DNA from: a virus
Virus record (IMG/VR): IMGVR_UViG_2643221642_000002
Location: 1-64,000 of that record
Length of the DNA: 64,000 nt
Reading direction: 5' to 3' (one strand)
Shown: piece by piece, positions 13,797-63,737 of the stretch
How positions within the stretch are numbered: the stretch's first letter is position 1
Layout: each line of letters starts with the position of its first letter
Notes under the pieces: generated by a model
Seen by the model: the letters and a program-made list of their open reading frames with translations, nothing else
Databases searched by the model: none
Told to the model about the DNA's origin: nothing
Made by a program: the position numbers and the translations under genes

Positions 13797-14108
13797 CTAG
13801 TTGAGGGTTGCTGACCGCACGGTGTAGGACCCGTTGGAGGAGGTGCACGACGCTTCGCCAGAAAAGCGGCTCCGGATCGGTACGCCGTAAGAGTTTTGAG
13901 CATCGACCTGGCCGATGATCAGGTACTCGTGCACGCCGGTTGTGATCGTTGTGACTTCGATAAATTTAGCTGTGCTCGGCGCTTTCAGTTGGCCGCGGAT
14001 CGCGTCCTTGACCGCCTTTTCAGCGCCGATCGGCATGCATGCCAGGTCCGAGCAACCCGTCAGCATTGTCGCTCCCGCCAGTGCTGCGGCTAGAAAAACG
14101 GCGCGCAT
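13797..14108 (-). CDS. Small lipoprotein co-transcribed with the CI repressor
   Basis: 103 aa from the ATG 14106-14108 (TGATG coupling with cI); signal peptide MRAVFLAAALAGATMLTGC with lipobox LTGC. Confidence 0.6.
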   Translation of the reverse strand: MRAVFLAAALAGATMLTGCSDLACMPIGAEKAVKDAIRGQLKAPSTAKFIEVTTITTGVHEYLIIGQVDAQNSYGVPIRSRFSGEASCTSSNGSYTVRSATLN

Positions 14109-14770
14109 CAGGCGGCCGTATGGTCGAGGCGAATGATCTTCTCCGCCTGGTGTGGGGGCGCGATCCAAGCGATGTGTGCAACCCAGACTAGGCGCTGATC
14201 TTCGAGCGTCGGCGCCTGCAGCGATTGCAGGTCGTAGACGTCCTTGTTGCTGCCCTTCATCAGTCGCTTGAACACGATCTCGCCGCTCTCAAGCTGGCAG
14301 AATACCAGGCGATGAAGCATGTCCTTCGTCGGCTCAGGCAGGCGCTCGTCGTAGTAGATCAGCGATCCGTCATCGACGACGCTTCTATAGGCGTGGCCTT
14401 CGACCTTCAAGATCACGACGTCCTCGCTGGCCCCCGGCGGGATAGGGGCATACTCCCTGGCCTGGCCGGAGGTGAAAGCGACCGAGTCGTCCGGCATGGC
14501 GCCCAGCTTGCCGACGATGCGGCCCATGCGCTCGCTCGGCCCGAACATCAAAAACTCAGGCGTCGTGCGGAACTTCTTTGCGAAGACCTCGGCCTTCTTT
14601 CTAGAGAACGGACTCGTGCCGTTCTCATGCTGGATATAGGTGTTGCGGCTTAGCCCTAGGGCCTCGGCGGCGTCGGTCGCCGTCTCGTAACCGGCGCCCT
14701 CGCGGGAGGCCTTGAGCCTCGCTCCGGCCTCTCGGTTCTTCTGACGGGTTTTGGCGTCGGTCGTGGACAT
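14108..14770 (-). CDS. cI: CI-like repressor (XRE HTH + LexA-like S24 peptidase domain)
   Basis: N-terminal HTH (…ATDAAEALGLSRNTYIQHENGTS…) and C-terminal S24 autopeptidase region (…VVILKVEGHAYRSVVDDGSLIYYD…KRLMKG…). Divergent from cro with three operators in between. Confidence 0.85.
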   Translation of the reverse strand: MSTTDAKTRQKNREAGARLKASREGAGYETATDAAEALGLSRNTYIQHENGTSPFSRKKAEVFAKKFRTTPEFLMFGPSERMGRIVGKLGAMPDDSVAFTSGQAREYAPIPPGASEDVVILKVEGHAYRSVVDDGSLIYYDERLPEPTKDMLHRLVFCQLESGEIVFKRLMKGSNKDVYDLQSLQAPTLEDQRLVWVAHIAWIAPPHQAEKIIRLDHTAA

Positions 14771-14777
14771 TTCACGA
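14761..14777. promoter_or_regulatory. Operator OR3 (TCGTGGACATTTCACGA), overlapping the cI start codon
   Basis: Imperfect copy of the 17-bp operator; the spacer contains the cI ATG (14768-14770). Confidence 0.55.
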
Positions 14778-14792
14778 TTTTACCGGCGCTGA

Positions 14793-55049: not shown

Positions 55050-55427
55050 ATGGCCGACAATACCGGGGACCCGCACCTGCTGGCGGTCCTGAGCAAGCTC
55101 GCGCCCATGACGCCGGGGGTCGCGGGCGCCGTCCTGTCCCTCGCGTTTGGCGAAAAGCTGACCGTCAGGGGCAAGACGATCAGCGTCGTCATAGGCCTGG
55201 CCAGCGCGCTGTGGATCGCGCCGGCCGTGATCGCCGTGCTCGCCGTACTGTGGCCGTGGGGCAAGTTTCCCGTCGAGCTGGGAAACGCGATCACGTTCCT
55301 GACCGGCCTGCTGGGCATGATCGCCCTGGCCGGTTTCGCCCAGGCCGTCGGCAAGTACGCCGGCGACCCCCTGAAGCTGATCAAGTTCGAGGTCGGCGGC
55401 CTGCGTATCGGCGGCGGGGAGGCGTGA
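55050..55427 (+). CDS. Holin-like membrane protein
   Basis: 125 aa with 3 predicted TM segments; GAGGAGGGG SD; first gene of the lysis cassette. Confidence 0.6.
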   Translation: MADNTGDPHLLAVLSKLAPMTPGVAGAVLSLAFGEKLTVRGKTISVVIGLASALWIAPAVIAVLAVLWPWGKFPVELGNAITFLTGLLGMIALAGFAQAVGKYAGDPLKLIKFEVGGLRIGGGEA

Positions 55428-55430
55428 GCC

Positions 55431-55742
55431 ATGCTGGCCCAAATGATCTCCATACTGGCCGCGGCGATCCTGCTGCTGGCCATCGCCCTGCTGCTCCTCG
55501 GTTGGGGCGGTCTCCTGACCCTCTGCCAGCGGATCGGACTGGCCATGTTCGGCGCCGGCCTGGTCCTAGCGGCCATCCCGCGCTTCCAGGGCAGGCCGCC
55601 CGGCTGGGGTGATGTCCTCATGCTGAGCGGCCTGGTGCTCTACCTGGGCGCCACGTACGCCCCCAAGATCATCCAGCACGTCGACGGTCTCGACGGTAAG
55701 ATCGACGGCCGGTTCGGCCGCCCGCGTCAGCCCCGCGCTTAG
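55431..55742 (+). CDS. Second holin/antiholin-like membrane protein
   Basis: 103 aa with 2-3 TM segments. Confidence 0.55.
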   Translation: MLAQMISILAAAILLLAIALLLLGWGGLLTLCQRIGLAMFGAGLVLAAIPRFQGRPPGWGDVLMLSGLVLYLGATYAPKIIQHVDGLDGKIDGRFGRPRQPRA

Positions 55743-57126: not shown

Positions 57127-57515
57127 GCGGCCCGACCGGCGCCGCGCTGAAGATCTGCACCGCCTTGGCGGTGGTCGCTCTGGTGCTGATCGGCGCCGGC
57201 GCGGCCATCGACTGGGTCAAGCACCCTTTCGGCCTGGGCAGGAACGCCCTGCCGGCCGCCCGCGCCGAGGCGAAGGTCAATGGCCAGCAGGCCCAGATCA
57301 ACGCCGACGGGGCAGCCATCAACGACTCGCGGGCAGGCAACATCGCCCGCATCCACCAAACCGCCCAGGAGGCCCGCCATGCGGTCCAGCAGACTGCTGA
57401 CTACGACGTTCGGCTGCGTCGCTATCTCGATGGCCTTGACGGCGTGCGAAACGACGGCGCCGCCCCGATCGCCGCAGATCCTGCTGACGGCGGGGGACAC
57501 GACCCGATCCGCTGA
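57123..57515 (+). CDS. i-spanin (Rz-like)
   Basis: N-terminal TM segment (LKICTALAVVALVLIGAGAAI) followed by a periplasmic coiled-coil region; ATGA coupling. Confidence 0.6.
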   Translation: MSGPTGAALKICTALAVVALVLIGAGAAIDWVKHPFGLGRNALPAARAEAKVNGQQAQINADGAAINDSRAGNIARIHQTAQEARHAVQQTADYDVRLRRYLDGLDGVRNDGAAPIAADPADGGGHDPIR

Positions 57516-57756
57516 CCCGGAGAAGCCCGCTTTCCCGCCGCTGGAGCCCGTGTTGGACGCCTCGGCGAAGGCGGAGCGCGACTATCTGTTCCGGGCCGTC
57601 ATCGGGCCGCTCCTGGACTTCAGCCTGGCCCAGGAAGCGGTCAAGCAGGCCGAAGGACAGCGAGCCGACGGTGTCGTCGCGAAGGTGTTGGCGTTCAACG
57701 CGGTCGTGGAGCGGAAGAGACGCCGCTGGTGGCCCTTCGCCCGCGACAAGCCGTAG
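57379..57756 (+). CDS. o-spanin (Rz1-like lipoprotein), starts within the i-spanin gene in the +1 frame
   Basis: GGAGG SD 6 nt upstream of the ATG 57379; lipoprotein signal MRSSRLLTTTFGCVAISMALTAC (lipobox LTAC); Pro-rich mature region. Confidence 0.6.
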   Translation: MRSSRLLTTTFGCVAISMALTACETTAPPRSPQILLTAGDTTRSADPEKPAFPPLEPVLDASAKAERDYLFRAVIGPLLDFSLAQEAVKQAEGQRADGVVAKVLAFNAVVERKRRRWWPFARDKP

Positions 57757-57813
57757 AGCGGCCTCCACGGCGATCTATTCTGCCCAGGCGGTGGTCTGGG
57801 ATCACAACGCACA

Positions 57814-57850
57814 GCGCCCCCGGCTTCGGCCGGGGGCGCTTTTGTCGTTT
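57814..57850 (+). terminator. Rho-independent terminator
   Basis: GCGCCCCCGGC-ttcg-GCCGGGGGCGC followed by TTTTGTCGTTT. Confidence 0.8.
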
Positions 57851-57896
57851 GTGGGCTACGGCCCTATATCCAAGATGAAAGGGAGGCCGACCACCA

Positions 57897-58087
57897 TGCG
57901 CGACAGTTGGAGCTACATCACCGAGGTGTCCGACAACTACATCCTCGACTGCTATCTGGCGATCCGGCGAGAGCTGGGCGTGGACCCCGCCAATGTTCGT
58001 GAACATCCGGACTTCAGGGAGTGGGCAAGCGCCCTCGAGGCGGAGATGGATAAGCGAGGCGTCGACTACGTCCGGGTCGTGTTCTAG
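57897..58087 (+). CDS. Hypothetical protein
   Basis: 63 aa from the ATG with AAGGGAGG SD (an alternative ATG lies at 57876). Confidence 0.45.
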
Positions 58088-58100
58088 CGGCCAAGCGGAG

Positions 58101-59291
58101 CTATCGCGTCGGCGTCGGCATGCCGATCTTGGAAAGGGCGACGATTGCGTTCAAGTCCGGCGGACCGTCGTCCTTCACTACGCCGTCGACAGAGGGCCGG
58201 AACAGCGCCTGCAGGATGATGGCCCGGTCGGTCGACTCCAGCGAGCCCTTCTGGATCAGCGCCAGGTAGGCGTTGGCCATGACGGCCCGTTCGTCGGCGT
58301 CCGTTCGCAGGTGGTGCTCGCTGAGATAGAGGCGCGTCAGGATGCGTGCGATCCACAGCAGCAGGGCGGCGAACAGCGTCAGCCCAGCACCCACCACGAT
58401 CAGAACCGGCGTCGGCACGGTGATCAGCTCGTGGAGCTTGTCGGCCGCCTGGTAGAAGACGAACAGGATCGCGACGGCCGCGCCGGCGAAGTAGAACCGC
58501 AGCATGCGTAGGTGCTGAGCCTCTTTCGCCTTGTGGATGCGAGACTTGCGTTTCCAGTACGTCACCGGAGCCTCGAGCCCGAGCTTTTCGGCATAGGCTA
58601 GCTCGGTGGTGTCGATGCGCAGGATGGCCTCGTCGACCCTGACCTTCATCTCGGTCCAGGCATCTTCCTTCGAAGCGATCGCCGCCTTGGCCTGGGAGAT
58701 CACTATGCGGATGGTTTCGTTGGCCAGCTTCTTCCTGGAATTCAGCACCTTGCCAAAATGCTCGACCAGGGCCTTCTCCGTGACCTCGAACCGGCGTGTC
58801 AGCTCGCCCATGGTTCGGCGCGACTGGGTTCTTTCGGCGGATAGATCCTTGATCAGCTGGTCGACGGGAACACGAGCAGGGTAGGCGAAGGCCATGATCC
58901 CCCGCAGCGCCGCCATGCCGCGTATCTCACCGAAGCTCACGAACTGACGGTAGTAGGCGTAGGCGGCGACGGCCGCCTCATCGCCTTCGCTACGGCGTAT
59001 TTCCAGGATCCGGCGCCCTTCGTCGCTACCGGAATAGACGAGCGGCCCGCTATGAAAGCGCGACTCCACCTGCGGCGTAATCACATGGAGCGGTTGTCCG
59101 TTCTGGGCGTTGCGCAACACCTCGTTGTTCAGCTCGTGGAACATCTGCGAGGCGGCGTTCCACGCGCTTTGCGTCAGGCCGCGACCGTTCATCCAGTCCC
59201 ATTGAGTCCGTTCCGCCTCGAGCCAGGCGCCCAGCTTCTGATGATCGTCGAACGGGATGCTGACGTCGCCGACAGTGAGTAGGGTGGACAT
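58101..59291 (-). CDS. Membrane protein: N-terminal cytoplasmic domain, two TM helices, short C-terminal domain
   Basis: 396 aa from the ATG 59289-59291. TM helices LRFYFAGAAVAILFVFYQAA and VLIVVGAGLTLFAALLLWIARIL. Distal gene of a three-gene coupled operon. Confidence 0.55.
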   Translation of the reverse strand: MSTLLTVGDVSIPFDDHQKLGAWLEAERTQWDWMNGRGLTQSAWNAASQMFHELNNEVLRNAQNGQPLHVITPQVESRFHSGPLVYSGSDEGRRILEIRRSEGDEAAVAAYAYYRQFVSFGEIRGMAALRGIMAFAYPARVPVDQLIKDLSAERTQSRRTMGELTRRFEVTEKALVEHFGKVLNSRKKLANETIRIVISQAKAAIASKEDAWTEMKVRVDEAILRIDTTELAYAEKLGLEAPVTYWKRKSRIHKAKEAQHLRMLRFYFAGAAVAILFVFYQAADKLHELITVPTPVLIVVGAGLTLFAALLLWIARILTRLYLSEHHLRTDADERAVMANAYLALIQKGSLESTDRAIILQALFRPSVDGVVKDDGPPDLNAIVALSKIGMPTPTR

Positions 59292-59293
59292 GC

Positions 59294-59752
59294 TCAAGCG
59301 CCCAGTTTGGGTAGGTTCACCGAAGCCCACGCGCCGACAATCGCGTCAAGCACCTGCTCGGCGCTGACCTCGACCACGACGTCGCCAGGCCAGGCGTCGG
59401 TCTTGCCGATCCACTCGCCGTCATCGGTGCTGTCGGCCCGGATCGGGTTGTGCGGCGTCGACTCGAACTCGGCGGTCCCGAACCCTTCCGGCGCCAATGG
59501 CAGCAGGTGGCGCTTCACCAGTTCCTGCAGGGTGGCGGTGCCCAGAAAGCGCCCGTCGTAGACCGTAGAGTTGGGGCCTGGCTGCACCTCGGCGAACTTG
59601 TCGATGTTCCAGCGGTCGAAGTAGTCGTCCAGGATCTCGCCGTCAGCGAACCCCCAGTTGGCGAACAGGCAGCTCGCATAGAGCCGCACCGGGCCCGGAC
59701 CGAGATCCTTGCTCGGATCGACGCTTCTCAGGTCTTGCGCGAAGGTGTTCAT
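59294..59752 (-). CDS. Hypothetical protein (middle gene of the operon)
   Basis: 152 aa from the ATG 59750-59752; separated by 2 nt from the downstream start. Confidence 0.5.
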   Translation of the reverse strand: MNTFAQDLRSVDPSKDLGPGPVRLYASCLFANWGFADGEILDDYFDRWNIDKFAEVQPGPNSTVYDGRFLGTATLQELVKRHLLPLAPEGFGTAEFESTPHNPIRADSTDDGEWIGKTDAWPGDVVVEVSAEQVLDAIVGAWASVNLPKLGA

Positions 59753-60267
59753 CAGACTGGCTCCTTGTCCATGACGACCGTGACCTCGTAGTCGTCGGCC
59801 GCCAGCCACTGCGCAGCCCGGCTGATGGCCGCGTCCACCATGGCGGTGAAGAAGTCGGCGCCCGAGGCGTCCAGGGCCTCCAGCTGCGCCTCGTCGAAGC
59901 GGAGATCGTGATCGGGCAGGCGCAGCAGGCGAAGCGCGTGGCGACCGCCCAGCGGCCGGCGCAAGAGGCCGCGCCCCGCATGCTCACCCCGTCCGCGCCG
60001 CGCATCCTCCTCGAGATCCTTAGCTAGGCCCTCCACAGCGCTCTCTACGCGCCATAGGGCGTCCCGCACCGGGTTCGGATAGCCCTCCCGGCTCGACCGC
60101 TCCCAGGAAACCACCTGGCTGTTGGTCACCTCGACGTCGCGGACGCGCAGGGCGTTGGCCAGGCCGACGATGTGGCGGCGCTCCATGCAGCAGGCGACGC
60201 GCAGGGCGCGGCTCTCGGGCCCGGTGAGCGGGCGGCCGCGCGAGCCGATCAGGGTGCGGAAGGTCAT
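59752..60267 (-). CDS. Hypothetical protein (first gene of the operon)
   Basis: 171 aa from the ATG 60265-60267; TGATG coupling with the next gene. Confidence 0.45.
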   Translation of the reverse strand: MTFRTLIGSRGRPLTGPESRALRVACCMERRHIVGLANALRVRDVEVTNSQVVSWERSSREGYPNPVRDALWRVESAVEGLAKDLEEDARRGRGEHAGRGLLRRPLGGRHALRLLRLPDHDLRFDEAQLEALDASGADFFTAMVDAAISRAAQWLAADDYEVTVVMDKEPV

Positions 60268-60313
60268 AGGCGGTGGTTCCTTGCTGAAGCCCCGCGCCTG
60301 CGGGGCAGATGGA

Positions 60314-60631
60314 TCAACGGACGGTGGAAAGGGGCGGCGGCGTGGGCAGCGGGTCTTTGCCGTCAGCCGCGCGCCGGCGGTTAACGGCGACCACCAGCTG
60401 GCTGACGGCCTCATCGGCGATGGCGTAACCCTGGCTGGCGTCTCGGAAGTCGCTCAGCTTGAAAAAGTGCGCGACGCTGTAGTCGCCATCCACGGCGATC
60501 AGCACGAAGAGGCGACCGTCGAGGTGGCCGCTCCATGTGAGGCCCGGATGCTTGATCCCAGCCGCGGTGACAAGCGCATCGCCTTCCTTGGTGAGTTCCT
60601 GCAGCGCGCGCTGTTCGGGAAGTAGGTACAC
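60314..60631 (-). CDS. Hypothetical protein
   Basis: 105-aa ORF with GGAGG SD; preceded by a partial copy of the repeated intercistronic element. Confidence 0.5.
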   Translation of the reverse strand: MYLLPEQRALQELTKEGDALVTAAGIKHPGLTWSGHLDGRLFVLIAVDGDYSVAHFFKLSDFRDASQGYAIADEAVSQLVVAVNRRRAADGKDPLPTPPPLSTVR

Positions 60632-60639
60632 GGCCGCCT

Positions 60640-60680
60640 CCGAGGCAGACTGGGTGATAGGGTAGGGGCGGATTAGGCCG
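60640..60680 (-). repeat. Partial copy D of the repeat element (GGCCTAATCCGCCCCTACCCTA box only)
   Basis: Shares the stop-codon box and ACCCTA with copies A-C but lacks the hairpin part. Confidence 0.5.
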
Positions 60681-61065
60681 AAGGGTCCCGCGGACGCTTG
60701 CCGAGGCTGGCCAGCATCTGACGATCACGAGCGAGCCGCCAACCATAGAGGTAGAAGGCGCCGCCCAGGGCGCGAGCGTCAGGATCCTGGCTGAGGTAGC
60801 CGTCCAGTTGGGCCATGGACTGCTCGATGTCGCTCGTCTGAATCCAGACGCCCCAGAACACATTCCAGCCCTCGCGCAGGGCCAGCTCGGCCTCGTTGAC
60901 GTTCCAGCTCACCCAGCCGTGGGAGGTCCGGCACCGGGTCGCGGCCACTACGGCCGAAACGACGTCGTCGTAGATGACCTGGGCGGCCGCCCGGCCGCCT
61001 TGCAGCGTCGCGCCCAGGGCCAGGGTGCGCTCGGTGGCCTCCGAATAGGTCTGCGGGATGTCCAT
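60673..61065 (-). CDS. Hypothetical protein
   Basis: 130 aa; the stop codon lies inside the GGCCTAATCCGCCCC box. Confidence 0.5.
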   Translation of the reverse strand: MDIPQTYSEATERTLALGATLQGGRAAAQVIYDDVVSAVVAATRCRTSHGWVSWNVNEAELALREGWNVFWGVWIQTSDIEQSMAQLDGYLSQDPDARALGGAFYLYGWRLARDRQMLASLGKRPRDPSA

Positions 61066-61357
61066 GGTCTGCTCTCGACTTTCACGGGCAATAGGGGCGG
61101 ATCAGGGCAGAGGGTCAAGGCTCCACCGTTCGGCAAAACGCGTCCACCGTTCGGCTTGGAACGGTCGCCCGAAACGGTCAGCTCTGGGCGGTGGTCGCAA
61201 AGCCTTGCGGGGCAAGGCCTAGGACCGTGCGAACGGTAGCCATTCCGGCGCCCGAATAGAGGGGTACGCCCGCCGCTTTCGCAGCGGCGCGGGCTTGGCG
61301 GATAACGGTCGACTTGGAAGGCATGGGCGTATGCTCCAGGTTGAGATGAGATAGCGC

Positions 61358-61798
61358 TCAGGCGAGCGGCGGATGAGACGGAAGAGGTAGACCCCGGCGG
61401 CAGGCTGTCGTGAACCTGAACCTCCCAGCCCACAGTACGTGCTCGGCGTCTCGACAGCTCCAGTCGCCTTCCAAATGCGGAAGGCAACGAGACCCGAAAG
61501 GCGGCTGTCTGAGGATAGGCGTCAGGGCTTCGATGGCCGTCCAGTAGCGCTGAACCGCGCGTTCCCGGAGCTGCTTGCCTTCCCTGCGCAGGCTCCAAGC
61601 GATGGAGGACCCGCCGCCGAGGCCCCGGGATGCCTCATAGGCGCTGCGCGAGTTTATCGAGTCTGACATGGCGATGGAGGCCAGCTGGGCGGCCTCGGGC
61701 GATCCATTTTGCGCGGCGAAGTCCATCAGCCGCTCACAAAGTTCGGTGATCGCGTCGGCAGCTTCTTTTCCGGGGGAGCGAACGTTACGCTTTCTCAT
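61358..61798 (-). CDS. Hypothetical protein
   Basis: 146-aa ORF. The N-terminal ~100 aa are protein-like; the C-terminal tail is low-complexity. Preceded by a full repeat element. Confidence 0.4.
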   Translation of the reverse strand: MRKRNVRSPGKEAADAITELCERLMDFAAQNGSPEAAQLASIAMSDSINSRSAYEASRGLGGGSSIAWSLRREGKQLRERAVQRYWTAIEALTPILRQPPFGSRCLPHLEGDWSCRDAEHVLWAGRFRFTTACRRGLPLPSHPPLA

Positions 61799-61872
61799 GG
61801 CGGTAGTTCCTTGATCTCCCGCGCCGCATGCGCGGGGCCGATTGGGCTGTAGGGTTGGGGCGGATTAGGCCT
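61799..61872 (-). repeat. Intercistronic repeat element, copy A (~70 bp)
   Basis: On the coding (minus) strand: GCC-TAA-TCCGCCCC…ACCCTACAGC-CAATC-GGCCCCGCGCATGCGGCGCGGGAGATCAAGGAACTACCGCC-ATG. Contains the upstream stop codon, a 7-bp GC hairpin (CCCGCGC-ATGCG-GCGCGGG) and an AAGGAAC RBS. Confidence 0.7.
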
Positions 61873-63136
61873 TGGGGTACGTCAGAGCGCCGGCCGGGAA
61901 GGTCAGCTCGACCTCGACCCGCTCGGCGTCCTGGATGACGGTGTGGACCTTGAAGCCGGCGTGGACCTTGAAGCCGGCGGCGCGGGCCGCCTTGCGCTCG
62001 GCCTGGGCCTTCTCGCGCGCTTCCTTCGCCGCCTTCTGGGCCAGCAGATCCTCGAAACGGGCGATGATGTCGCCGGCCGTCGGATAGATGTTCTCCAGGC
62101 TGTGGTGACCAAGGATGATCGCCCGCACCTCGGCAATGCGCTCAGCCTCGGCCTGCGTCGGCGCCCGGATGGGCCAGCCCTTCTCGTAGCGCAGGCCCTT
62201 GATGTTGATCTCAGCTTCCAGGCGCCGTCGCTCCTCGGCCTTGTCCTTGGCCCAGGTGACGCGCTCGACCAGGTCGGCGCCCAGCAAGCGCGGCGTGACG
62301 TCCGCCAGCCAACGCGTGGGCTGGAAGCTGAAGGTGCTCGACGCCTCCATCTCCACCAGGTGGCGATAGGTCCAGTGGTTGGACTCGACACGGTTCGAGG
62401 CGCGCTGATCTTCCTGACGCTGGAGGACGCAGAACGAGCAGCCCAAGCGGGAAGAGCCGGCGTCATATGCCAGGTGAAGCGGCAGATCGTGGCGGTGGTG
62501 GTAGGCGAACACCTCCTCGGTCTTCACCTCGACCGCCGGGTGCCAGGTCATCAGCGTGGTGCCGTCGTCCTTGCACCAGCGAGGCTCGGGCTTGGAGATG
62601 GGCGTGTTGGCGCGGCTGGCGCTCTCCTCGCGCCGGATCCCGACCACGGAAATGATCGTCTGCCCGGGGAATTCCTTTTGGAGGGCGGGACTGATTACCT
62701 GCTGCTTCATCTCGGCGGTGCAGAACCGCAACGACGCGCTCGACCAGGGGCCGATCAGGTTGAAGACCTCCAGATTGGCGTAGCGGCGCTTGCCCTCGGC
62801 GAAACGCGCCTCCCAGCGCGAGATCATGTCGTGCTTGTTGTGCCGGACCACCATCAACGGGACGTCGAGCGTGCTCGCGATCGACTGGACCATGTCCAAC
62901 GTCACGTCCCATTCGATCCGCCCCAGGTCAGCATGGATGGCCCGGCGCAGCGCCTTGGGGTGGCCGAGCATGTCGAGCAGTTGGTTGGCCTTGTGCGCGG
63001 CCACGGCCGAGTCCTTGCCGCCGCTCAGGCTGTAGACCACGACCGCGCCGGCGCAGATGGCGGCCAGGGTTTGATCGTCGATCGCGATGTCGAGGGTGGC
63101 GCAGGTCTCGACAGCCTGGGCGGTGGTCATACGCAT
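61865..63136 (-). CDS. PP-loop ATP pyrophosphatase, PAPS-reductase-like family protein
   Basis: N-terminal VVVYSLSGGKDSAVAAH (the SGGxDS PP-loop); ~250-aa PAPS-reductase-like core; coiled-coil C-terminus ending in a duplicated AGFKVH. Confidence 0.65.
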   Translation of the reverse strand: MRMTTAQAVETCATLDIAIDDQTLAAICAGAVVVYSLSGGKDSAVAAHKANQLLDMLGHPKALRRAIHADLGRIEWDVTLDMVQSIASTLDVPLMVVRHNKHDMISRWEARFAEGKRRYANLEVFNLIGPWSSASLRFCTAEMKQQVISPALQKEFPGQTIISVVGIRREESASRANTPISKPEPRWCKDDGTTLMTWHPAVEVKTEEVFAYHHRHDLPLHLAYDAGSSRLGCSFCVLQRQEDQRASNRVESNHWTYRHLVEMEASSTFSFQPTRWLADVTPRLLGADLVERVTWAKDKAEERRRLEAEINIKGLRYEKGWPIRAPTQAEAERIAEVRAIILGHHSLENIYPTAGDIIARFEDLLAQKAAKEAREKAQAERKAARAAGFKVHAGFKVHTVIQDAERVEVELTFPAGALTYPKA

Positions 63137-63205
63137 CTGGCGTTCCTTGGTCTCCCGCGCCGCATGCGCAGGGCTGATTGTGCTGTAGGGTCAGGGCGGA
63201 TTAGG
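63137..63205 (-). repeat. Intercistronic repeat element, copy B
   Basis: ~88% identical to copy A, in the same stop-hairpin-RBS-ATG arrangement. Confidence 0.7.
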
Positions 63206-63737
63206 CCGCCTGGTCCAAGTCGTAGGCGGGCAGCTCGTCGCGAGGATCGGCGTCGTTGTCGAACATCACGTAGTCGAAGCCCTGGGAGCGGGCCCAGGCC
63301 AGCGGGGCGTAGAGACCTTCGAAGGCGTCGATCTCGCGGTCGCTGTGCTCATGGGCGTAGATCACGGCGCCGCAGCCGGTCGGACCGCCCGAGACAGGCC
63401 AGTCCTTCAGCGGGAGAGCGAGCAGGGTTTCCCACGTCGCTTGCGGGATATGCGCCGTCGACAGGACGACGGTCCGCCTCGTCTCGAACTCCTGGGCGGT
63501 GGTCGTGACGGTGGTGCGCTCGAGCCCGGCCGCATCGAGGATCGCGTTCGCCACCTGAAGGGCCGCTTCGCGTGGAAGGTAGATCATGCAGCGGGTCAGC
63601 CACCCGGTCTTGTTGAGGGGCTGGAGGCGGATGTCATCGTCAGGCCCGAACGATTCGACGCTCAGGCCGCACGGGGTGCTGGAGCCGTTGCGGCCGAGGT
63701 TGAAATAGCCGGGGATGCGCGAGAACTTGATCAACAT
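63201..63737 (-). CDS. Hypothetical protein
   Basis: 178-aa ORF flanked on both sides by the repeat element. Confidence 0.5.
   Translation of the reverse strand: MLIKFSRIPGYFNLGRNGSSTPCGLSVESFGPDDDIRLQPLNKTGWLTRCMIYLPREAALQVANAILDAAGLERTTVTTTAQEFETRRTVVLSTAHIPQATWETLLALPLKDWPVSGGPTGCGAVIYAHEHSDREIDAFEGLYAPLAWARSQGFDYVMFDNDADPRDELPAYDLDQAA

Follow-up and report, generated by a model that had tools for sequence, protein, structure and literature searches.

An AbiZ/DUF6161-family membrane protein gene in a variable cargo slot of a Caulobacter prophage

AbiZ is a single-gene abortive infection (Abi) system consisting of a membrane protein that brings lysis forward, probably in concert with the phage holin, so that infected cells lyse before virions are complete (PMC13064643). 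Genes identical to AbiZ were found on lactococcal plasmids in the UCC plasmidome study and the activity was re-validated (PMC11381338). In addition, proteobacterial DUF6161 proteins were flagged as likely defence proteins in an independent language-model study (bioRxiv 10.1101/2025.01.08.631966). In this study, we analyzed a stretch of 64,000 nucleotides (IMG/VR virus record IMGVR_UViG_2643221642_000002, positions 1 to 64,000; hereafter the window), which is a temperate prophage of Caulobacter sp. Root343 with 67% GC, and in it a run of three minus-strand genes, here called A, B, and C, of 171, 152, and 396 amino acids (aa). With a probability of roughly 0.6, we read C as a single-gene AbiZ-type membrane defence or superinfection-exclusion gene, sitting in a swap-in slot of Caulobacter-type temperate phages, which would act against other phages through premature lysis; that it is a fairly ordinary phage-borne defence gene is plausible. 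The first-pass annotation of the window had proposed the three genes together as a candidate abortive-infection system. That candidacy stands for C, which is homologous to AbiZ and is accessory cargo of a prophage, but not for the three genes as one conserved module.

The layout of the three genes was confirmed as first described. The stop codon of A (TGA, 59754-59752) and the ATG of B overlap by one base in the sequence TGATG, and 2 nucleotides (nt; GC) separate B from C. Each of the three proteins is identical, in length and in sequence, to an NCBI-annotated protein of Caulobacter sp. Root343, and the GC content at third codon positions (GC3) of the three genes is 0.82-0.85, as is typical of coding sequence. 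Word-based searches of 5.8 billion proteins returned 11 relatives of C (27-68% identity), 8 of A (61-88%), and 3 of B (∼70%). The identity to annotated proteins, the coding-type GC3, and the homologues elsewhere together show that A, B, and C are real genes and not chance open reading frames (ORFs).

The first-pass annotation had recognized none of the three proteins as a member of a named family, which proved to be wrong for C. Against Pfam, C matched DUF6161 (PF19658) with 74.2 bits (cut-off 27; E 1.3e-20), residues 224-376 aligning to positions 62-214 of the 216 in the profile, and no other family, SLATT included, was found for it at E<=1. The DUF6161 domain was precomputed on all 11 of its homologues (11/11), and the NCBI name of the identical Root343 protein is ‘DUF6161 domain-containing protein’. 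The PADLOC model of AbiZ (PDLC02354) matched C with an E of 4.8e-13 over model positions 183-385 of 398. A tblastn search of plasmids led to a dairy Lactococcus plasmid that encodes, near abiA, a ‘DUF6161 domain-containing protein’ of 432 aa, and because it scored 552 bits over the full length of the PADLOC AbiZ model we took this protein as AbiZ. Residues 230-379 of C aligned with it by BLASTP at 25% identity (E 2e-14). Using hhalign, a profile of the 12-member C family matched AbiZ with 97.6% probability, which became 99.5% (E 3.6e-23; C 218-392 on AbiZ 258-431) when AbiZ was combined with three plasmid DUF6161 proteins. Sequence-profile searches of the PDB with the A, B, and C families returned nothing significant. 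By these profile matches, C is a relative of lactococcal AbiZ, and it is the only part of the locus to which a defence-type function could be putatively assigned.

The solid part of the match between C and AbiZ is confined to the C-terminal ∼175 aa, comprising the helix before the membrane, the transmembrane (TM) hairpin, and the tail. In both proteins, a pre-TM helix with the pattern (A)P..(Y/F)W is followed by two TM segments, a helix S.(H)H...E(R/K)A...YL..(I/T)..G, and a tail (I/L)L..(L/I)F....G..K.D; the shared elements read in C as the juxtamembrane helix APVTYWKxK, the TM hairpin, the helix LYLSEHHLRxDADERAVM..YLAL, and the tail ILxALFRP..DGvVKDDGPPD. The N-terminal ∼215 aa of C, unlike this module, are not detectably related to AbiZ; when the N-terminal halves were compared by hhalign, only a weak match was found (C 8-33 vs AbiZ 23-48; P 0.005, 7% probability), and a short N-terminal motif is possibly common to the two. 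Both are single-gene proteins of ∼400-430 aa (C 396, AbiZ 432) carried by mobile elements, but AbiZ is from L. lactis plasmid pTR2030, whereas C is found in a Gram-negative alphaproteobacterium, on a prophage, as the tail of a phage operon. C is a divergent AbiZ/DUF6161 member, and both its host group and its type of carrier are new for the family. The explicit profile homology ties proteobacterial DUF6161 proteins to lactococcal AbiZ and gives them a testable mechanism, namely premature, holin-linked membrane failure, in a Gram-negative host with three-step lysis.

The description of C as a protein with two TM helices, a large cytoplasmic N-terminus, and a short C-terminal part was borne out by Kyte-Doolittle hydropathy, an AlphaFold model, and the distribution of charges. 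In the model (mean predicted local distance difference test score, pLDDT, 75.6), the two hydrophobic segments make up the bend of a very long hairpin of helices, and the hydrophobic stretch of AbiZ is their counterpart in the alignments. The charges around them (+5 ahead of the first TM helix and a short acidic loop) follow the positive-inside rule, so an N-in/C-in topology fits C; about 260 residues on the N-terminal side of the hairpin and about 80 on the C-terminal side are predicted to be cytoplasmic. The N-terminal domain was modelled confidently (pLDDT ∼90 for residues 1-130), W33 and S89 are invariant across 12 homologues, and no specific fold match to this domain was found in the PDB or BFVD. 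Further invariant residues of C are Y245/W246, H253, R316, E334, F364/R365, and G370. The topology had earlier been likened to SLATT-type effectors. The likeness is that SLATT effectors with two TM helices, as in cyclic-oligonucleotide-based antiphage signalling systems (CBASS) and others, also have two close TM helices with helical flanks, and both are presumed to be membrane-damaging. However, kinship with SLATT was not upheld, as Foldseek comparisons of C with SLATT-annotated viral proteins gave E values of 1.2-2.7 and in BFVD no structure matched the C model with an E below 0.48. Signal partners of the SMODS, SLOG, or TIR type did not recur beside C, a ThsB TIR protein being present once among 136 neighbours.

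We then examined the distribution of the family. Scanning 185,579 species genomes yielded 36 C loci from alphaproteobacteria, IMG/VR added 9 viral contigs, and hidden Markov model (HMM) profiles of A, B, and C were run against all ORFs of 67 fetched loci (numbered with the prefix L). Besides the copy in the window, a C-family member was present in 57 loci, with B in none of the 57 (0/57) and A in one (1/57; L001). The A-B-C trio was found only in the window and in its identical copy L014, A adjoins C once more (L001), and B adjoins C nowhere else. The nearest relatives of C (68% and 52% identical) are solitary, one of them adjoining a cluster of DNA methylase, HATPase_c_3, and Methyltransf_35 genes, while other relatives adjoin a phage terminase gene, a CI-like S24 repressor gene, or genes for a helix-turn-helix (HTH) protein, Mrr, and an SLFN-type helicase, or lie near a prophage integrase gene. 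From this distribution, C acts without an obligatory partner.

This distribution largely refutes the reading of A, B, and C as one three-component abortive-infection system (for example, a regulator, a sensor, and a pore-forming effector), which we regard as very improbable. It is true that TGATG and the 2-nt gap couple the three genes tightly, that C has no good Shine-Dalgarno (SD) sequence of its own, so that its translation probably depends on B, and that in L001 a homologue of A directly abuts a homologue of C. Nevertheless, A precedes unrelated genes in L008, L009, L010, and L011, in L011/L012 B accompanies A while C is missing, and C stands without A or B in 56 other loci, its closest relatives included. 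Even in L001, where A is 78% identical, C is only 39% identical and B is missing, as would be expected if one slot had been used repeatedly and the genes had not been inherited together. Multi-gene defence systems are therefore poorly recognized by tight translational coupling alone.

A smaller unit, in which B would be an immunity or antitoxin-like partner that spares the prophage’s own holin, or a sensor for C, is highly doubtful. The 2-nt gap and the weak SD sequence of C imply coupled translation, and a prophage with an AbiZ-type protein may plausibly need self-immunity. Yet a profile search with the B family found no B relative in the 57 other C loci, a close B homologue precedes different genes, and B-like domains are fused to a cytosine-C5 DNA methyltransferase, which points to a DNA-modification context.

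The first-pass annotation had suggested comparing gene neighbourhoods for defence-island enrichment. Among 136 proteins encoded within two genes of 35 genomic C copies, no recurrent partner was found and no Pfam family occurred more than twice. PADLOC identified PifA (twice), type IIG restriction-modification (R-M) systems (twice), ThsB, a DRT reverse transcriptase, several PDC candidates, and type II methylases; the rest of the neighbours were phage, transposon, or ordinary housekeeping genes. As a set, these neighbours are heterogeneous. C homologues are carried by the 9 IMG/VR viral contigs, several prophages, and plasmids, and some are single genes between housekeeping genes. Their GC3 is often 0.46-0.62 vs 0.8-0.95 in the flanks (L029, L025, L039, and others), L029 having 0.54 vs 0.93-0.95, and this difference is indicative that the copies are recent horizontal single-gene insertions. 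C behaves as a mobile, stand-alone gene with a moderate association with defence islands. On Lactiplantibacillus plantarum plasmid pAWA2013_2 (L067:4703-4819), a DUF6161 gene is directly followed by a gene for a ‘putative holin-like toxin’, a neighbour of note in view of the proposed cooperation of AbiZ with holins.

Two further explanations of C bear on these neighbourhoods. It could be a membrane protein with a function unrelated to phages, such as a stress response or another mobile-element role, the kinship with AbiZ then being uninformative; we hold this to be unlikely. DUF6161 is a DUF family with a single characterized member, the N-terminal domains differ, and many neighbours are housekeeping genes, but the patchy, horizontally acquired distribution (low GC3), the repeated carriage by phages and plasmids, and the position beside known defence genes, more than expected of a housekeeping gene (no background rate computed), argue against it. 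C could also be the prophage’s own lysis-timing factor, a holin modulator or antiholin-like protein with no role in defence, which seems quite unlikely. C adjoins the lysis cassette in the window and in L001 and is near spanin genes in L033, AbiZ is thought to work through holins (PMC13064643), and the plasmid homologue in Lactiplantibacillus adjoins the ‘holin-like toxin’ gene. On the other hand, most C homologues are away from lysis genes, in R-M/defence islands or between housekeeping genes, most sister phages have the same lysis cassette without C, and C is transcribed convergently to the lysis genes.

The location of C is a variable cargo slot bounded by the stop codon of A and the terminator of the lysis cassette. 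All homologues of A are found in related phages with a common gene order, in which genes for a DUF5983 protein, a PAPS-reductase-like protein, and a 130-aa protein are followed by A, the cargo, and then, convergently, the spanins, the endolysin, and the holins. The homology among the six related phages stops exactly at the stop codon of A (TGA|TG) on one side and just after ...GCGCTTTTGTCGTTT on the other; past the cargo, it returns at the terminator hairpin AGCGCCCCCGGCTTCGGCCGGGGGCGCTTTTGTCGTTT, which follows the spanin gene. This terminator is kept in all six phages (6/6) as the right border of the slot. The content of the slot is unlike in each of them: B, C, and a small gene F in the window; a relative of C (39% identical) and others in L001, where no B intervenes; 158-aa and 165-aa proteins and more in L008; a GvpU-like protein and a homologue of F in L009; 80-aa and 66-aa proteins in L010; and a homologue of B, then 170-aa and 115-aa proteins, in L011. 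Downstream of the C homologue in L001 (4694-6134), about 1.4 kb has no called gene. In five of the six phages (5/6), the first cargo ATG overlaps the TGA of A. The last codons of A, GAC AAG GAG CCn GTn TGA TG (59752..59775, minus strand), are conserved at the DNA level and supply both an AAGGAG SD sequence and the overlapping stop and start. Since this overlap recurs with different cargo, the coupling belongs to the slot itself and does not speak for a functional link between the genes.

Temperate phages are known to have hotspots of accessory genes, with defence genes between core genes in P2/P4-like elements and morons downstream of the lysis genes in lambdoid phages. The slot resembles these in having conserved flanks, sharp breakpoints, differing cargo, and at least one cargo gene of a defence type. 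Unlike such hotspots, it is set by a conserved upstream gene that lends an SD sequence and a stop/start overlap to the cargo, and most of its other cargo is without a recognizable defence function. The other cargo of the sister phages gave no match in PADLOC, and the only Pfam match was a marginal one to DUF551, just under the cut-off; as no defence family was found among it, the slot as such does not qualify as a defence hotspot. What has been mapped in a Caulobacter prophage family is a cargo slot with sharp bounds, which could be mined for further accessory genes.

The coordinates of the features are collected in Table 1.

Table 1. Features of the prophage and of the A-B-C locus, in positions of the window.
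Feature	Coordinates	Strand	Remarks
CI-like repressor	14108..14779		
Lysis cassette	∼55.0-57.8 kb		two small multi-TM proteins, holin of the prophage (55050..55742), CHAP/lysozyme-type endolysin, i-spanin/o-spanin pair
Intrinsic terminator of lysis cassette	57813..57850	+	12-bp stem and T-tract
Variable cargo slot	57851..59751		bounded by A stop codon and lysis-cassette terminator; holds B, C, F here
Gene F, 63 aa	57896..58087	+	small cargo gene convergent on C; ORF with GGGAGG SD
Gene C, 396 aa	59291..58101	-	DUF6161/AbiZ-family membrane protein
DUF6161 core shared with AbiZ	58164..58622	-	C residues 224-376
TM helix 2 of C	58347..58427	-	∼residues 289-315; Kyte-Doolittle up to 2.64; model helix H294-348
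TM helix 1 of C	58452..58511	-	∼residues 261-280; Kyte-Doolittle 19-residue window 1.78; within model helix H190-288
N-terminal alpha/beta domain of C	58872..59291	-	candidate sensor; residues 1-140; motif F.D...L..WL..E...W.W
Gene B, 152 aa	59752..59294	-	cargo gene
Gene A, 171 aa	60267..59752	-	ATG start; conserved phage gene, left border of cargo slot
Stem-loop GCCCCGC-AGGC-GCGGGGC	60289..60306	-	7-bp stem; 6 nt upstream of A SD (60277-60282)
Small ORF D105, 105 aa	60314..60631	-	no counterpart in L008-L011; no family match
Small ORF, 146 aa	61358..61798	-	no counterpart in L008-L011; no family match
PAPS-reductase-like protein	61865..63136	-	phrog_424, E 4e-29; upstream in A-B-C operon, conserved
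DUF5983 protein	63201..63737	-	upstream in A-B-C operon, conserved

We propose that the 3′ end of A offers a ribosome-binding site and an overlapping stop and start to whichever gene is inserted behind it, and that B and C are two unrelated cargo genes co-located by chance. C, if expressed in the lysogen, would be anchored in the inner membrane by its helical hairpin, with the N-terminal domain and the short tail in the cytoplasm. The N-terminal domain would sense an infection cue, and, upon infection of the lysogen by another phage, C would permeabilize the membrane early, probably with the invader’s holin, the juxtamembrane/TM/tail module serving as the effector. The cell would then lyse or die before the progeny are complete, and the lysogen population would be protected (abortive infection/superinfection exclusion).

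Several points weigh against this proposal. Homology to AbiZ is solid only in the C-terminal ∼175 aa, and there the identity is 25%; from the N-terminal 215 aa comes no more than a weak match of 26 residues. To our knowledge, no proteobacterial DUF6161 member has experiments behind it, the mechanism of AbiZ is only partly established and in a Gram-positive host, and lysis of Gram-negative cells additionally requires an endolysin and spanins. C is the last gene of a long phage operon, and no promoter of its own was detected; the scan was for sigma-70-type promoters, of which none was found in 57500-61500, and did not cover Caulobacter promoter types. C could also damage the prophage’s own lytic cycle, and no mechanism of self-immunity is known. 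Finally, the remaining slot cargo of the related phages carries no defence annotation in PADLOC or Pfam.

B is an independent cargo gene unrelated to C. Its family, which is uncharacterized, consists of small cytoplasmic proteins marked by the motifs WGFxDGD and HNPIRA. Searches of Pfam, PADLOC, PHROGs, and NCBIfam returned no match for A or B, and a search of the PDB none for B. By hmmsearch against 1.84 billion representatives, we found 177 remote relatives of B at E<=1e-3, most of them of 110-140 aa; those checked matched nothing in Pfam or the PDB and, in PHROGs, gave just two marginal hits, both on families that lack annotation, and the few that are named are all ‘hypothetical’. Homologues of B stand behind homologues of A, with other cargo and without C, in L011/L012. 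In two IMG/VR loci (L052:3863-6820 and L053:3812-6478), a stop-free ORF begins with a B-like domain, 36% identical to B, and continues into a cytosine-C5 DNA methyltransferase, the latter part having the motifs DNFAGGGG, SPDCKHFS, ENV, and GNSV.PP and a match to PDB entry 3g7u (E 4e-9). The fusion hints at a link of the B family with DNA modification instead of with C. B may belong to a DNA-modification theme to which the PAPS-reductase-like gene in the operon and the methylases in related operons also belong. Region 91-143 of the B profile matches a 4,071-aa protein (P0030) in 17 separate stretches, and this region may resemble a repeat unit.

The stem-loop upstream of the SD sequence of A accompanies A in all six related phages (6/6); in the alignment and by RNAalifold, it has 7 pairs with one compensatory change and several G-U changes. 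Where D105 is inserted upstream, the conserved stem-loop sequence begins directly after the D105 stop codon. The stem-loop could be a processing site or a site for the binding of a regulator. A itself is probably an XRE-type HTH protein, although its model is of moderate confidence only (pLDDT 74). It is conceivable that A, the stem-loop, and the SD/TGATG end form a dock for the expression of cargo, in which an Aca2-like, DNA/RNA-binding HTH protein would autoregulate itself and the coupled cargo, with defence genes (C) or DNA-modification helpers (B) plugged in and B maybe providing self-immunity for C; we consider this improbable. In a comparison of A with Aca2/YdiL (DUF1870), there was no Pfam match at E<=1, hhalign gave 0.1% probability, and BLASTP gave no alignment; moreover, A lies ahead of its cargo, while in ZF40 the acr gene comes first and aca2 second. 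No further A-bearing phages were found in JGI metagenome contigs, and IMG/VR returned only the contig already known. Comparison of the region with 50,697 phage genomes by blastn and tblastn gave no match.

The primase, DnaB, terminase, portal, and capsid genes of the prophage are all on the plus strand. In the lysis cassette, the i-spanin/o-spanin pair was assigned by visual inspection, on the strength of a TM segment at the N-terminus and an LTAC lipobox. The three genes had been described as lying downstream of, and convergent to, the lysis terminator, which is correct; however, gene F, on the plus strand, lies between the terminator and the end of C, with 13 nt between the stop codons of F and C. 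The homologue of F in L009 is 81% identical and occupies the same site adjoining the terminator, and F is also called as a gene in L014.

The description of the locus as a prophage end is only approximately right. The minus-strand operon that includes A-B-C starts ∼9 kb upstream of C, ∼3.5 kb beyond the right end of the window (L014:1-6500), and beyond its start L014 has an SRAP-domain gene and then the host genes tig, clpP, and clpX. From the SRAP-domain gene and tig-clpP-clpX past the operon start, we placed the right prophage junction there; the A-B-C locus is therefore ∼9-10 kb from the prophage end and not at its edge. No tRNA gene was found in the window. The arm of the operon with the PAPS-reductase-like and DUF5983 genes may be a DNA-modification or anti-restriction module. 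In related phages, DUF4942, Dam, or MT-A70 methylases are found at the position of these two genes. The 105-aa and 146-aa ORFs have no counterparts in L008-L011, which indicates that the operon has more than one variable insertion point.

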